Below are positions 3,905 through 60,753 of a stretch of 64,000 nucleotides of DNA, piece after piece; the stretch's first letter is position 1, and every line of letters begins with the position of its first letter. The translations under genes and the position numbers were made by a program. The notes beneath the pieces were generated by a model. The model ran no database searches, was not told where the DNA came from, and worked only from the letters and a program-made list of their open reading frames with translations. The stretch is from a virus (lineage: Duplodnaviria > Caudoviricetes). The stretch lies in IMG/VR virus record IMGVR_UViG_3300006752_000009. One strand, written 5' to 3'.

Positions 3905-4879
3905 TTAGGCGATTTCTGACCAATCCCATTCACCTACAAGACCGTTGGCGGAGTAGTCTGACACAACCCCCTCAAAGAAGTTCTTGAAAGAGTCACCACT
4001 TACGACCCAATCGAGCCATTGGAGTGGATTTTTCTTTTGTTTGAAGACGGGTTTAAGTCCGAGTTGTAGAAGTCTACGATCAGCGAGGTATCGGACATAG
4101 GTTTTGAGATCATCTGAAGTGAGATCATTGATAGCACCGTTATGATTATAAACGAGGTCAATGAGTTTATCTTCTAGTTCAACAGCCTTCTCATAGTTTG
4201 TGTAGATGTAGCTCTTAAGTTTATCGGTCACAACACGAGGGTGTTCTTCACAATAAGCATGAAAGAGCTTTGTCATACCCTCTACATGAGTAGATTCATC
4301 TCTAATGCTCCATTCCACGATCTCGCACATACCTTTCATCTTCCCGAACCGTTGGAAGTTGAGGAGCATAACGAAAGCAGAGAATAAGCTCATGCCCTCG
4401 TTACATACAGATCGGGCAAGCTCAAATGCGATGTTGGTGATACGACCTAAACCTTCTGGTGCTTGAGTCATAAACTCGATCTTCTCACGCATCTCATCAA
4501 ACTCTAGGAACGCAGAGTATTCTTTAACTGCAAGTCCTAGAGTGTCATTTAATAGTGCGTATGCTCTTTGATGTGTTCCTTCACGATTAGCGAAGGATAA
4601 GAGCATATTTCTGATCTCGTTGTTCTTGAACTCTTTGATAAAGATGTCGCAGTAGTTCCCACCGACAGCAACATCGGATTGAGTGAAGATCCGTAGGATT
4701 TGTGTGATGTGTTGTTTCTCCGAGTCAGAAATCTGACCACCTTTCCATTGGTTCACATCTTCCTGTAGCTTCGCCTCCCAAGTTCCCCAATGAATTTTCT
4801 CGTGTTCCTCTGCGATGTTCATCGCCCAAGGATACTGAAATGGCTTGTAAGTTGTACTGAACTCAAGTAGTCCTGCCAT
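3905..4879 (-). CDS. nrdB: ribonucleotide reductase class I beta subunit
   Basis: Di-iron motifs (D..V, E..H.RAY, E.MSLFS.F, RDES.H), C-terminal NFFE..V.DY. Confidence 0.97.
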   Translation of the reverse strand: MAGLLEFSTTYKPFQYPWAMNIAEEHEKIHWGTWEAKLQEDVNQWKGGQISDSEKQHITQILRIFTQSDVAVGGNYCDIFIKEFKNNEIRNMLLSFANREGTHQRAYALLNDTLGLAVKEYSAFLEFDEMREKIEFMTQAPEGLGRITNIAFELARSVCNEGMSLFSAFVMLLNFQRFGKMKGMCEIVEWSIRDESTHVEGMTKLFHAYCEEHPRVVTDKLKSYIYTNYEKAVELEDKLIDLVYNHNGAINDLTSDDLKTYVRYLADRRLLQLGLKPVFKQKKNPLQWLDWVVSGDSFKNFFEGVVSDYSANGLVGEWDWSEIA

Positions 4880-4945
4880 GTTCTTAACCTCTCGTTATAG
4901 AGTTGAATGTTATTGATACCACCCTACAATGAGAGAATATAAAAA

Positions 4946-5542
4946 CTACAAATCACCCATCTTCTCTTTGAGAACCTTCTTATACTCCGACCATGATCTC
5001 CTAAAGGTTCGCATGAAGCCCTCAAGATCATCGTAGAGGCTAGATGGATTGAGTACACCTGTGAGCTTCGGCAAGTTCCAACCCCCACTGAAGATGTTAT
5101 CAAGAAACTCCTGTGCATCTTTATGCCCTGTATGCTCTCGCTCATCGTTGAAGTTGATCAAATACTCGACTACATCTTCACCGTAGCTAAACTCTATGTC
5201 GATCTGTAAGCGATCTTCATCACAGAGCATCACCCCACAAAAGTCACACTCTTCCTCGACTGTTTCCTCGACTCTAAAGCCAAGCTCATGCAAGAGCTTA
5301 AGAAACGCTCCGATAGCGTAAAAGGTGTTTTGGTTTTCAAGCACCTCGTCTGAGACACCACGAACACCATTACGCTTCTCGGTCATCCGTTGCTCTATGA
5401 GATTTTGTCGAGCGTTTTCCTCGATAGCACACTCAAACATAAGTCCGTATGTGCGAAATGTGTCTTCAACACCTTTAAGTGCAGTGTCAGTTTCAAGAAA
5501 GTCTGCGAAGATGAACTTCTCGTCATCATGGATCTCATTCAT
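4946..5542 (-). CDS. hypothetical protein
   Basis: 198-aa ORF with AGGAGG RBS; class B box at 5567-5583. Confidence 0.6.
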   Translation of the reverse strand: MNEIHDDEKFIFADFLETDTALKGVEDTFRTYGLMFECAIEENARQNLIEQRMTEKRNGVRGVSDEVLENQNTFYAIGAFLKLLHELGFRVEETVEEECDFCGVMLCDEDRLQIDIEFSYGEDVVEYLINFNDEREHTGHKDAQEFLDNIFSGGWNLPKLTGVLNPSSLYDDLEGFMRTFRRSWSEYKKVLKEKMGDL

Positions 5543-5663
5543 ATTGTCCTCCTGTTCTAAGGGGCGATAGATAAGGGGTTACATCTGCAACCTCTAAACT
5601 ACTAACGCTTCCTAGAACACAAAACGGACAATTTTTCTTTTTCAAACTTAGAAAAAAGTTTTT

Positions 5664-6218
5664 TTACTGACCAAAGTCCCAAGGAAGGTCGTACATATCT
5701 TGACCCGAACGAGCGTCTTTCCAACCAACTCGTGCTTGGATAGAACCACGAGCAGGAATGATTTCTCCCTTAGCTAGAAGCTCGTTACTGTATTTAGCTC
5801 CGACACCATTAGTAGCAATCGTGATATGTGGGTCATCATTCTTAACAAGTCGAGCTAAAGGACCTTGAGGCTCAACAAGAACAGCCATACCCTTATCGTC
5901 ATGTGCGTAGCCCACGATGTTAAGAACAACATTCTTACCGATAAGATCAGCATAAGGCTCAAGGATGTTAGACTCAGCACGACCCTCTCTCTTGAGAGCT
6001 TTCTTTTCCTTCTTATCAAAGAACTCAATGGTCATGTGGTGAGCGGCTACTTTCCAACCCATAGCTTCTGGATCAAGACCCGATTGATCTTGGAACCAGT
6101 TAAGCAAATCTCTCTTATCAATAACAGCTTCGGCAAACATGACGCTTGCAGGTTTATCTTGGGCGAGCTTCCTCATGTGTACAGAAGCGACTCTTCGGAT
6201 CATGCGATTGTAGTTCAT
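5664..6218 (-). CDS. 2H phosphoesterase (cyclic phosphodiesterase) with an RRVAS-type N-terminal leader
   Basis: Two HxT motifs (HHMTI and PHITI) about 65 aa apart; AAGGAG RBS; class A box at 6267-6280. Confidence 0.7.
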   Translation of the reverse strand: MNYNRMIRRVASVHMRKLAQDKPASVMFAEAVIDKRDLLNWFQDQSGLDPEAMGWKVAAHHMTIEFFDKKEKKALKREGRAESNILEPYADLIGKNVVLNIVGYAHDDKGMAVLVEPQGPLARLVKNDDPHITIATNGVGAKYSNELLAKGEIIPARGSIQARVGWKDARSGQDMYDLPWDFGQ

Positions 6219-20948: not shown

Positions 20949-21215
20949 ATGTCATTACCTAGAGAACGAAAAAGAGCTGACTATCGAGTCATTGCTCGCA
21001 TCTTGCAACTGAGTCATGGACAAGCAGATCCAAAAGACTCATTGCTTGAAAAGATTTCTAATGTATTTAATCGTAATGGTGGCTCTTGGGTATTATTCTT
21101 TGAAGGACACCCAAAACACAGCAAGCTACTTAAAGTAGTGATAAAAGCTGTCGTAAAACATAAGAAGGATCAACATGAGCGAAGAACTAGAAGCCAAATC
21201 AGTTGGGAAGATTAA
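20949..21215 (+). CDS. hypothetical protein
   Basis: 88-aa ORF with GGGGG RBS; class A-like box at 20905-20916. Confidence 0.6.
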   Translation: MSLPRERKRADYRVIARILQLSHGQADPKDSLLEKISNVFNRNGGSWVLFFEGHPKHSKLLKVVIKAVVKHKKDQHERRTRSQISWED

Positions 21216-22851
21216 ACCCCGATCAAAAGCGATCACTCGTAAGCTCAATCCTGCCGAGATGAAATCGAGGGTCAAAGTGGCGATGACCACAGGAGGCTCT
21301 ATGATGGGGTCGGGTGGGAACTTCTACTCACCAGAGTTATCTACTGACTTTCTTGAACTACCTCAAAGTCAAGACGAACAACGCAACTACTTTAGGTTCT
21401 TTTATCGCACTGACCCCTTCGTAGGACAGGCGATTGATCTACATACAGAGCTTCCCCTCTCTAAGATCAGATTAGGGCTACCTAAAGCTCGCAACCGAGA
21501 CATGGCTTATGAAGCACTTAGGTTCTGTGAAAAATGGGCGAAGCGAGTCGGACTACTTCACCGACTCATAGAAATCTTACATGAGTTCAACCTGCTCGGT
21601 GAGGTTTTTGTTTTCTGTGAGGACAATAATCCAGATGTGCCTCAAGAGGTGACACATAGTGGTCGGAATGTTCTTAAAGAAGATGGCGAAGCGTTTACTG
21701 AGTGGACTGAGTATGAGGACTCCCATGAACGAGCTTACAAGTGGCTCAAGAGGAACTATAAAGGGTGGACAGGTGTTCGTATCCTCCCTCCCGAACAAGT
21801 TCACATGGAGAGTTTTCCTTTCACTAGTGAGAAGATCATTCAACTTATTCCCGATAGTAAAACTCGTGATGTAGTTGAACGAGCTTCGGTTAATGATCCC
21901 TCTGCTCTTCGTATTGTAGACTCAATGCCAGGAGATGTTGTAGAAGCTATTCGAGATGGTCGCAACATTGACCTCAATACTGATCCCGATCAAGGATCAT
22001 TCGTTTATTATATGGCTCGTAAGAAATCACAATATGAACCTCGTGGACACTCTATGCTTGAGCGTTGTCTTCGTATCCTCGTTTATCGAGATAAATTAAG
22101 ACAAGCCCAAACTTCTATCGCTTCAAGACACATGACTCCTATCCGACTCGTATATGCAGAGGATATGGATGCGTCTGATGTTGAAGAGTTGAGAGATCAA
22201 GTGGATCTTGCACTACAAGATCCAGACTATTCTATCATCGCTAACTTCCAAGTCTCTTGGGAAGAGATGGGTGCTGACTCTCGTTTGCTTGAACTATCGG
22301 GCGAATATGATATGACAGACCGACAGATGTATGCAGGTCTAGGTGTTACAGAATCTCTGTTATCTGGTGAGTCTAGTTATAGTGGCGATAGGATCAACTT
22401 AGAAGTCATCAACACACGCTATATGCTTATGCGTGAGGTTCTTCAAGAGATGGTTGAAGAGAACATCTTGAAGCCAATGTGTAGACGAATGGGTTTCGTT
22501 GAAATAGATGAAGATGGTGATGAGGTTGTAGTACACCCAACCCTTAGCTTCACTCGACTTGGATTGCGTGATAATCAAGATACCTTTGACGCTCTCTTTA
22601 ACCTGTATCAGAAGGGTTCATTGGACATTGATGTGATCCTAGAACTCCTCAATGTAGATCCTATGACAACTAAGGCTAAACTTGAGCGTGATATGTGGAC
22701 ACTCAATGACTCTCAGTTTAACGAAGTTCTGAGAGGGGTCTATGGTGAAGCAGGTCGTATGTTAGCCGAGAACACAGAAGCGATTGAGATCATCGCTAAG
22801 AATCTTGGATTAAAGTACAACCCACCAGAAGATGACGGTGGTCGTTTCTAA
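21175..22851 (+). CDS. probable portal protein
   Basis: 558 aa; segments FYRTDP.VGQAIDLHTELPLS, LLHRL.EI.HE..LLGE.F and YE.RG.S.L.RC resemble large-phage portals (from memory). Confidence 0.65.
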   Translation: MSEELEAKSVGKIKPRSKAITRKLNPAEMKSRVKVAMTTGGSMMGSGGNFYSPELSTDFLELPQSQDEQRNYFRFFYRTDPFVGQAIDLHTELPLSKIRLGLPKARNRDMAYEALRFCEKWAKRVGLLHRLIEILHEFNLLGEVFVFCEDNNPDVPQEVTHSGRNVLKEDGEAFTEWTEYEDSHERAYKWLKRNYKGWTGVRILPPEQVHMESFPFTSEKIIQLIPDSKTRDVVERASVNDPSALRIVDSMPGDVVEAIRDGRNIDLNTDPDQGSFVYYMARKKSQYEPRGHSMLERCLRILVYRDKLRQAQTSIASRHMTPIRLVYAEDMDASDVEELRDQVDLALQDPDYSIIANFQVSWEEMGADSRLLELSGEYDMTDRQMYAGLGVTESLLSGESSYSGDRINLEVINTRYMLMREVLQEMVEENILKPMCRRMGFVEIDEDGDEVVVHPTLSFTRLGLRDNQDTFDALFNLYQKGSLDIDVILELLNVDPMTTKAKLERDMWTLNDSQFNEVLRGVYGEAGRMLAENTEAIEIIAKNLGLKYNPPEDDGGRF

Positions 22852-23944: not shown

Positions 23945-24245
23945 ATTTAACTCCTAGTGCCTTCCATGAAGCGTAAGCGAACCAGTCCTCTTGAGAGAGT
24001 ATCATCTCATAGTCATGGGCGAGACCGATGCGAACATAGTTCTCATTGAACTCAAGACTTGGGGTGTACTTAAAGTCTCTCTCTGCCTCTAGGAAAGCCT
24101 CAAACTCACCATAGTAGAGGTTATATTTCTCATACTCCTCATATTCCTCATAGTCTGGAGTATTGAGGTCTGTCCTCACCAGCAACTTGCGAGTGGTGAA
24201 AGGCATGACTCTTTGTTCGGTAAAGTCGATGTCGTATTCAAGCAT
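23934..24245 (-). CDS. hypothetical protein
   Basis: Start moved to ATG 24245 (GAGG RBS, overlaps the upstream stop). Confidence 0.55.
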   Translation of the reverse strand: MLEYDIDFTEQRVMPFTTRKLLVRTDLNTPDYEEYEEYEKYNLYYGEFEAFLEAERDFKYTPSLEFNENYVRIGLAHDYEMILSQEDWFAYASWKALGVKYDI

Positions 24246-24456
24246 TGCTGTTTTCCTCTCGGTAGTGAAGCTCATCTCCGATAGAGATGTATAGATCTTC
24301 ATACTCGTTGGTTGGGTGGGTGGCGAGTATGTGCTTTTGGATCGCCACTAGAGTCTCGTTAGGTAAAGCGAGTTGATCATAAGGTGGGATCTCATCACCG
24401 TTAATGGTGATGGTGTGGTCGCCTTCAAGGTTTGGTAGTGAGACTGTGATGTTCAT
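24238..24456 (-). CDS. hypothetical protein
   Basis: AAGGAG RBS. Confidence 0.55.
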   Translation of the reverse strand: MNITVSLPNLEGDHTITINGDEIPPYDQLALPNETLVAIQKHILATHPTNEYEDLYISIGDELHYREENSNA

Positions 24457-24656
24457 AGAGTGTTCTCCTTTGGGAAGTTTTAGTATTGCTCCTCCACCAC
24501 CGAGTCAGAGGACTCAACTCCCATCTAAAGGTGCGTGGTGGTGTTAGGGTTCTTATGGGTAAAGAGTTCGATGAGGGCTAGGGTTAGAAGAATGTGTTTC
24601 AAGTTTCTCCTTTGGGAGTGAGTGGTTATACAATGTTATAGATAAGGGGTTACAAA

Positions 24657-24911
24657 CACCCCGACTCTCCTAAGAGAAGCCGAGGTGTCGGGCAAGTGAG
24701 CTGACCTCGCCAAGCATATCTGAGTCTGCGTAAAGCCCGTTTCTATAGGAAAGACGCAACATCTCACCTTATGTTGGCTCAAACCCCCCTTTTGAGATTG
24801 AACCTACGATGCGAGGTCAGAATCACCCACAACGACCACTACCCTTTCAATGGGTGGTTTACCTTTACAACAGCGTAAAGGCTTTGTTGGGCTAGTGGCA
24901 TCCCCCAACGA
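24657..24911 (-). ncRNA. stand-alone structured RNA candidate (~255 nt), family unknown
   Basis: No ORF; promoter-like TGTAACCCCTTAT...TATAAT at 24913-24936; 10-bp long-range helix 24701-24710/24811-24820; at least six local hairpins; terminator-like 3' hairpin at 24659-24685. Confidence 0.6.
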
Positions 24912-24984
24912 CATTATACAATAAATAAGGGGTTACAGTTGTAGTTTCTTTATCGCTCTCAATATAAAGAAAAAGGAGCTTACT

Positions 24985-60476: not shown

Positions 60477-60704
60477 ATGAGTAAAAAGCAAAAGTTTGAG
60501 AAAGTAGACCACCCCGACCATTATCAAGCAACGGGGATGGAAGCGATTGATGTGATCGAGGCTTATAACCTCAACTTTTCGCTCGGATCAGCGATTAAGT
60601 ATATTTTACGAGCAGGTAAAAAGCCTGGTGAGAGTTCTATTGAGGATCTCAATAAAGCGATTTGGTATCTTCAACGAGAGGTAGAGAGAAACGCAGAGGG
60701 ATGA
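60477..60704 (+). CDS. DUF3310-like small phage protein
   Basis: VDHPDHY...EAIDVI...NF.LG.AIKY..RAG.K...EDL.KA.WYL. Confidence 0.85.
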   Translation: MSKKQKFEKVDHPDHYQATGMEAIDVIEAYNLNFSLGSAIKYILRAGKKPGESSIEDLNKAIWYLQREVERNAEG

Positions 60705-60753
60705 TTTCATATAAGGGGTTATTATCTGACCTCTTTTTATGAAAGGACTGCTC

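Follow-up and report, generated by a model that had tools for sequence, protein, structure and literature searches.

Phage T4 encodes two stable RNAs, C and D (also called species 1 and 2), which lie in its tRNA cluster and whose function is unknown. The RNA described here, from an uncultured marine megaphage, resembles this pair by description only, all being phage-encoded, ORF-free small RNAs with an apparent relation to tRNAs, and the T4 ones being stable. The T4 pair sits inside the tRNA cluster and is processed with it, whereas the megaphage RNA lies ∼100 kb from the tRNA cluster and has a promoter and a hairpin of its own.

YrlA (bacterial Y RNA-like) RNAs, which occur with a Ro/TROVE protein, are also present in some jumbo phages (PMC7824862). 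Like them, the megaphage RNA is non-coding and joins a long closing helix to a tRNA-like module, but it has no Rfam match and mimics neither a T-arm nor a D-arm. TROVE and RtcB are also missing from a 100%-complete 375-kb relative (G001): the Ro/TROVE profile (PF05731) gave 0 matches there, in a search whose control matched 2 of 14 control genomes, and no RtcB gene was found. Phage tRNAs with altered anticodon loops answer tRNA-cleaving host defenses, as does the T5 tRNA-Lys against PARIS (PMC11455837, which cites PMC11464382 and PMC10264068). The megaphage RNA would likewise be a phage-borne tRNA derivative with a changed anticodon stem-loop, but T5-type tRNAs are working, chargeable molecules that replace the cleaved host tRNA, whereas this RNA cannot decode; any putative anti-defense role would therefore be that of a decoy or inhibitor.

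In layout, the locus is also like a terminator-type riboswitch: a promoter precedes a 250-nt helix-closed domain, the 3′ strand of which abuts a terminator-like hairpin followed by genes, and the domain combines conserved junctions, one variable stem and competing folds. Unlike such riboswitches, it matches no known class, has a promoter between hairpin and genes in most variants, offers a weak candidate antiterminator and precedes genes that suggest no ligand.

The RNA unit lies on the minus strand of the window, the 64,000-nt stretch of IMG/VR record IMGVR_UViG_3300006752_000009 that was analyzed, and with its predicted ends occupies positions 24655–24909 (∼250 nt). Its body is bounded by a class B box with a perfect TATAAT on one side and a 15-bp hairpin on the other (Table 1). 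The 255-nt stretch has a minimum free energy of −100 kcal/mol (z −4.46), equaled by 0 of 200 shuffled sequences, and holds the sole long inverted repeat in the region, a perfect 10-nt pair (24811–24820 and 24701–24710). Box, TATAAT, inverted repeat, GC-rich hairpin and second box were all present where the original prediction had placed them.

Rfam 15 contains no family that the RNA matches at the gathering score, and relaxing the search to E ≤ 10, on 1 kb and on 271 nt, returned chance matches of 12–13 bits. At default settings, ARAGORN called neither a tRNA nor a tmRNA in the unit, and a description of the RNA was not found in literature searches. Several of the checks proposed with the original prediction came out in its favor: folding is better than that of shuffled controls, no Rfam family removes the novelty, and the homologue search with covariation analysis yielded seven variants with compensatory changes in four helices. 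With the non-coding status and the 51-nt invariant run presented below, these results support its description as an undescribed phage structured RNA. We conclude that it is a genuine, previously undescribed, clade-specific structured non-coding RNA gene, an orphan family that belongs among the known class of orphan phage non-coding RNAs and is not a new kind of system.

Table 1. Features of the RNA unit and its immediate flanks (positions in the window)
Feature	Position	Strand	Remarks
Promoter	24913–24936	−	class B box TAACCCCTTAT at 24925–24935, then perfect TATAAT at 24913–24918
H1 (GTTGGG/CCCAAC)	24886–24909	−	12-nt loop with CCACTA
H2	24861–24882	−	9 bp, 4-nt loop; 63/63 cells paired
H3	24835–24858	−	invariant CCC/GGG core, variable 6–7-nt loop
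Anticodon-arm-like hairpin	24810–24831	−	24831–24826 with 24815–24810; 10-nt loop TGATTCTGAC, almost invariant
P3	24776–24804	−	11 bp, invariant loop AAAAGGG
Variable region	24739–24775	−	length changes: deletion in L002, 26-nt insertion in L190
51-nt invariant run	24686–24736	−	5′ part apparently without pairing; next come the 3′ strands of the long-range helices and the foot of the terminal hairpin
Long-range helices P2 / P1, 3′ strands	24701–24708 / 24693–24699	−	partners 24813–24820 / 24823–24829
Terminal hairpin, terminator-like	24655–24689	−	15 bp; weak U tract TGTTTGT
Second class B box	24638–24654	−	directly after the terminal hairpin; direct repeat of 24921–24937; motif copy at 24642–24652

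Seven distinct variants, 84–95% identical, were collected from IMG/VR and marine metagenomes. Five IMG/VR contigs with the RNA gave two distinct sequences, and a metagenome scan with a 19-mer from a conserved loop gave four further variants; chance loci (L131, L187, L189, L191 and L192) were dropped, as were ∼119 loci from a 14-mer scan, most of them probably tRNA T-arms. The invariant run of 51 nt is identical in all seven variants and the next longest such run is 9 nt; with 34% of the other ungapped columns varying, the probability of a run of this length is ∼4e-10. In the adjacent Zn-ribbon gene, synonymous third positions differ by 19–34% between most variants, the exception being the closest pair (L002 and L190, 7%).

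The statement that no ORF is present needs qualifying. Short ORFs exist, among them one of 30 aa with an ATG at 24762, but none is conserved, as indels of 1–2 nt place them in three frames across the variants and two variants have no start. The 30-aa candidate, which follows a Shine–Dalgarno-like AAGGTGAG, was rejected since it falls in three frames, lacks its ATG in L190 and stops after one codon in L002. Given the frame-breaking indels and missing starts, the unit is non-coding, and judged from its alignment it is under selection as an RNA.

In the model-fitted alignment, 95.8% of cells are paired, against ∼40% when partners are slid, and six pairs carry double changes, against 2.4 in shuffles. 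To judge by the aligned variants, compensatory changes back four helices: H2, P3, the anticodon-arm-like hairpin and the terminal hairpin. The predicted CCTTTAC/GTAAAGG stem (H2) has two pairs changed on both sides (U-A/C-G and C-G/U-G/U-A). P3 has four such pairs, and in L185 a change of AAT to TTA is matched by one of TT(G) to TAA. The predicted CTCAAA/TTTGAG stem does pair but is only part of this longer hairpin, and what had been read as a T-loop-like GGTTCAAT is its 5′ strand, which reads GGTTCTTA in L185, where the opposite strand has changed to match; a conserved T-loop (TTCRANY) on a 5-bp stem was rejected on the same covariation. The GC-rich terminal hairpin is confirmed as a covarying element: over the seven variants 83 of 84 cells pair, and of the changes seen one is double and five are single; in L188 its 3′ arm is rebuilt and perfectly paired, with the tail TGTTCGT.

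The remaining stems fared unevenly. Pairing in H1 is retained in all variants (with an A-to-G wobble, and a 2-nt bulge in L002) but is uninformative, and the CCACTA of its loop can pair with TAGTGG at 24835–24840 (48 of 49 cells), a possible alternative fold. The H3 loop varies in nearly every variant between invariant flanks, and an outer extension of this helix, broken in L002 and L186, is doubtful. Two predicted stems do not hold across the variants, namely CAACAT/ATGTTG (deleted in L002, broken in L188) and GCGT..TTTC/GAAA..ACGC (failing in L190 and L002), and a TGCGT/ACGCA helix proposed by alifold was dropped because it fails in L190. A conserved A(A/T)GTGAGAT motif (24761–24770) is complementary to CTCACTT and pairs with 24694–24700 in 42 of 42 cells, with no covariation.

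The core had been predicted as a single long-range helix (CTGACCTC/GAGGTCAG plus GGGTGA/TCACTT). The P1 and P2 parts of it are paired in 105 of 105 cells with four one-sided, wobble-compatible changes, but the last two pairs, a GC/GC extension, are paired in 9 of 14 cells and in only two of the seven variants, and we discarded them; these bases covary instead with bases just upstream. The anticodon-arm-like hairpin, of 6 bp (9 bp in four variants), is paired in 42 of 42 cells, five of its six pairs vary, one by a G-C to A-U double change, and its covariation score is the top one among all 6-bp helices scanned (column-shuffle p ∼0.01). Its stem is mutually exclusive with the full long-range helix (P1 plus P2), so the single-helix fold is incomplete and has a covarying local hairpin as its competitor.

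With the hairpin forced, the folds of three variants lie within 0.6–1.6 kcal/mol of the minimum in predicted energy, the freed 3′ segment is predicted to fold into a small hairpin (GGCGAG/CTTGCC), the loops of the two hairpins stay complementary (CTGAC/GTCAG) and the terminal hairpin still forms in every variant. For these seven sequences, the modeled core would fit either a two-fold switch or a single fold with kissing hairpins; a simple duplex alone does not fit. The RNA also contains an 11-nt direct repeat, GTCGTTGGGGG and GTCGTTGTGGG at 24902–24912 and 24826–24836. Its copies open H1 and the anticodon-arm-like hairpin, both of which have 6-bp stems and loops of 10–12 nt with GAT near their start, and by sequence one may have been duplicated from the other.

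The center of the RNA is collinear with the tRNA-Tyr of the 375-kb relative over the D-loop, the anticodon region, the start of the variable arm and the T-loop, with TCTGACCTCG and AGGTTCAA as common segments. Among the nine phage tRNAs, tRNA-Tyr was the best in each comparison (z 4.3, p 0.002 for variant L002; z 2.0, p 0.045 for the window's own variant). Correction for 27 comparisons leaves this similarity modest, though coherent, and in the case of the window's own variant it is weak. The covarying anticodon-arm-like hairpin maps to the anticodon region and a P3 strand to the T-loop.

A cloverleaf, by contrast, was rejected, as neither an acceptor nor a D or T stem persists through the variants: the acceptor-like pairing is mismatched in six of seven, a D stem is found only in L002 and L190, and a T stem is absent. 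The tRNA model RF00005 had no match in the window at E ≤ 10, nor at this locus in G001 at E ≤ 0.01, and ARAGORN needed a lowered threshold (-ps80) to call any tRNA, which was then a poor 'tRNA-His'. The claim that tRNA consensus features are lacking therefore stands for every cloverleaf test but misses the collinear center. The RNA shares with phage tRNA-Tyr a collinear sequence and, at the anticodon-arm position, a hairpin that still covaries; unlike a tRNA, it has no acceptor stem or conserved D and T stems, its T-loop strand forms one side of a new hairpin, and it extends to 250 nt with extra domains. We consider it probably tRNA-derived, on the strength of this alignment, but not a tRNA. 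Since no cloverleaf is conserved, whole-tRNA mimicry is excluded, and what remains is an anticodon-arm-like hairpin with a loop of 10 nt, not 7 nt.

The core of the promoter box and the TATAAT are invariant in all variants that extend that far. Class B boxes occur seven times in the window (0.8 expected) and in ∼50 copies in the 375-kb relative, where no other part of the RNA is repeated. From their placement in the window, 20–60 nt upstream of gene starts such as that of an SNF2 helicase gene, they appear to behave as a phage promoter element. At 24913–24950 the RNA promoter stands back to back with a plus-strand TAGTTTCTTTAT, a putative second promoter type, in a 70-nt divergent spacer. A box at 60711 (minus strand) was considered as the start of a second ORF-free unit and rejected, as it overlies a plus-strand ORF of ∼75 aa and the folding there does not exceed that of shuffled sequences (z −1.6). 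This ORF (∼60480–60705), below the 100-aa threshold for listing, has a good ribosome-binding site and occupies an apparent 370-nt gap; the box lies antisense at its 3′ end.

The original prediction gave the RNA its own promoter and terminator, with a second box restarting transcription, and called it stand-alone. Promoter and hairpin are both there, and of the features of an intrinsic terminator the GC-rich, covarying 15-bp hairpin is present, but the U tract falls below the scanner's rule and the hairpin was not called. Box plus TTGTATAA recur at 24626–24654. This second box is full in four of the seven variants, where its position behind the hairpin fits a stand-alone unit, and degenerate in L002, L190 and L185; with no promoter box after the hairpin in these three, the RNA may there be the 5′ leader of the next genes, so that stand-alone status is not certain. 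An oligo-dT marine run (X24) yielded two 151-nt contigs, covering only 24619–24738 and 24772–24906, with none on the flanks. They are at most a weak hint of an abundant RNA with a 5′ end near 24906, at a depth of 3, with DNA carry-over possible, one contig crossing the hairpin and the bare flanks not counting as evidence.

Comparison with other RNA classes bore out the prediction that the RNA matches neither tmRNA nor RNase P. For tmRNA, ARAGORN was negative, no family matched at E ≤ 10 and there is no conserved reading frame; the bacterial, archaeal and minimal RNase P models gave no match at E ≤ 10. The 3′ region bears what we take to be a resemblance to the 3′ end of Escherichia coli M1 RNA, which we rejected because no model matched and the covarying H2 leaves no compatible partner strand for P4. 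Motifs that we presumed to be SRP-, 6S- or T-box-like were set aside as well, with no model match behind any of them.

In G001, a reverse transcriptase search (PF00078) gave 0 matches and BLAST found no second copy of the RNA body, so neither of the features looked for in a retron or DGR, a reverse transcriptase and a repeated RNA body, is present. There are no tandem repeats of the kind expected for a type III toxin–antitoxin RNA, and the downstream protein is a 77-aa membrane protein. As for antisense targets, BLAST of the RNA against the whole 375-kb relative returned promoter boxes only, and a good second site for the complement of a 17-nt loop is absent from the window.

The genomic context is fixed in all variants, with a divergent virion-protein gene (p620) on one side and, co-oriented downstream, the gene for the 77-aa membrane protein (p77), then one for a DnaG-type Zn-ribbon (CHC2) protein. 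Between the RNA and p77 lie 0–2 accessory genes, with insertions in three variants. In the window, 23955–24610 holds the second class B box, a 25-aa mini-ORF and genes of 72 and 122 aa; this segment is absent in L001/L002-type relatives, where the RNA abuts the 77-aa gene, whereas L188 carries both genes and L186 has the 72-aa gene alone. The segment has the look of moron-type cassettes that entered where hairpin and promoter meet. In three seawater DNA runs, contigs fuse 24462 to 24605, dropping 142 nt with the mini-ORF; the skip of 24463–24604 is an indel polymorphism within the accessory cassette.

A neighboring 558-aa ORF (21175–22851), ∼2 kb from the RNA, encodes a portal protein (PHROG 16240, E 8e-32; no Pfam match) and is the best-conserved nearby gene, at 97–99% in the RNA-bearing clade. 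Used as an anchor, it retrieved 52 IMG/VR relatives on contigs of up to 619 kb. The RNA had no blastn or megablast match in the GenBank phage collection, and a 21-mer from the invariant run had 0 matches in 185,579 prokaryote genomes, which revealed neither a copy in a host nor a twin at an attachment site. The conserved part of the stretch, or more of it, is contained in >20 marine or seawater runs; in ∼20 seawater runs it is this conserved fifth alone.

The whole records of 18 more distant relatives, of which six are ≥90% complete, yielded no copy when searched with covariance models based on three and on seven variants. Since none of these matched, we conclude that, within reach of the models, the RNA is restricted to a narrow clade of uncultured marine megaphages (350–375 kb). 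It is absent even from relatives with an 88% identical portal and is thus dispensable for the wider group. These relatives have no recognizable p77 either and keep the Zn-ribbon gene, but on the other side of the portal and behind a short spacer with no match to the RNA models (three spacers were read directly). In L136–L140 and L179, which belong to them, Zn-ribbon and p620/p653-like genes lie upstream of the portal (∼4100–5700), the opposite arrangement, which points to a local rearrangement associated with the RNA having been gained or lost.

As to function, for which the original prediction offered ribozyme, decoy or scaffold as conjectures, we tentatively favor, at somewhat less than even confidence, a decoy or scaffold that mimics part of a tRNA and acts in trans, over a leader or attenuator acting in cis. 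Transcription would start from the repeated phage promoter box, reinforced by the perfect TATAAT, and end at the 15-bp hairpin. The center would be a remodeled tRNA, closest to the phage tRNA-Tyr, in which the former anticodon region survives as a covarying hairpin, the T-arm strand has been rebuilt into the 11-bp hairpin and the acceptor and D arms have been lost. Part of the 51-nt invariant segment is complementary to the tRNA-like hairpin in its loop and 3′ arm, and the core may alternate between two hairpins, possibly kissing, and one long-range duplex. Once terminated, the RNA would act in trans, its anticodon-arm-like hairpin and the invariant segment, which looks like a recognition surface, binding a tRNA-handling host or phage factor. 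Transcript ends, trans action, partner and timing are the parts of this proposal that we infer. An independent unit fits because a second box follows the hairpin in four variants and accessory genes stand between the RNA and the next conserved gene; the neighbors (small membrane protein, DnaG-type Zn-ribbon protein, virion proteins) suggest no partner protein.

A cis-acting, riboswitch-like 5′ leader or attenuator is possible, at a probability that we put well short of even. Its domain would set whether transcription stops at the terminal hairpin or reads through into p77, the Zn-ribbon gene and, where present, the accessory genes, and the short RNA would be a by-product. Such a role is suggested by the constant position of the RNA, co-oriented and directly upstream of the same genes, and by its co-occurrence with p77, both being missing in the relatives with an 88% identical portal; accessory genes with a promoter of their own are, however, tolerated between the two. 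Read-through and a cis role are conceivable given the weak U tract and the three variants without an intact box after the hairpin, in which the genes have no other recognizable promoter, but the full box right after the hairpin in the other four would bypass attenuation.

The closing helix, conserved junctions, variable stem and terminator resemble an OFF riboswitch, although no known riboswitch class matches, and two near-isoenergetic competing folds engage the closing helix. A candidate antiterminator exists, CGAGGT in the 3′ strand pairing with ACCTCG in the 5′ arm of the terminal hairpin in 42 of 42 cells. Only 6 bp long, it has no covariation of its own, and chance alone would supply pairings of this kind many times over within 260 nt. 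The terminal hairpin is retained in all variants when the alternative hairpin is forced.

We hold it unlikely that a tRNA-Tyr paralogue has been rebuilt as a bistable device, in which the anticodon-arm hairpin would toggle against the ultra-conserved 3′ segment. Such a device might be a nuclease decoy or inhibitor, with a host tRNA-targeting immune nuclease as its target, or a new class of riboswitch or RNA sensor gating early transcription.

A part in replication, as a primer or R-loop transcript or as a single-strand priming site tied to the primase-type Zn-ribbon gene, is very improbable. The RNA adjoins that DnaG-type CHC2 gene, but relatives that have lost or never had the RNA retain it, and the other neighbors encode portal and virion proteins, with no replisome among them. 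A promoter and a structured transcript do stand at a divergent junction, near which (18–24 kb) the cumulative GC skew turns, but the turn is not sharp and the skew tracks gene orientation. Still less probable is a packaging-associated RNA acting with the portal, by analogy with the phi29 pRNA: the RNA has self-complementary loops, diverges from virion cargo genes and lies 2 kb from the gene for the portal, but it matches neither Phage_pRNA nor any other Rfam family, its promoter type drives helicase and other non-structural genes, and its absence where the portal is 88% identical means that it cannot be a core part of the motor. That it is a pseudo-tRNA in decay, functionless today and with its promoter left over, as its tRNA-like remnants without a cloverleaf and its narrow distribution might suggest, is the least probable reading, set against a 51-nt invariant run, compensatory changes that maintain four helices, an invariant promoter and the divergence of neighboring synonymous sites.

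The giant phages of the ocean are uncultured and, to our knowledge, almost nothing is known of their RNA biology. The narrow distribution of this RNA and the lack of an identified partner limit its present importance, but it offers a clear-cut example of a non-coding RNA gene that is conserved, has its own promoter, falls outside all curated families and is seemingly part-built from a tRNA gene, and it combines two competing conserved folds in one molecule. Were the favored tRNA-mimicking decoy correct, the phage response to tRNA-cleaving defenses would be extended by an RNA-only arm; a leader switch would be a new class of regulatory RNA. If neither holds, the RNA would still offer a defined object for structure probing and a model of tRNA-gene reuse in the making of new RNAs.
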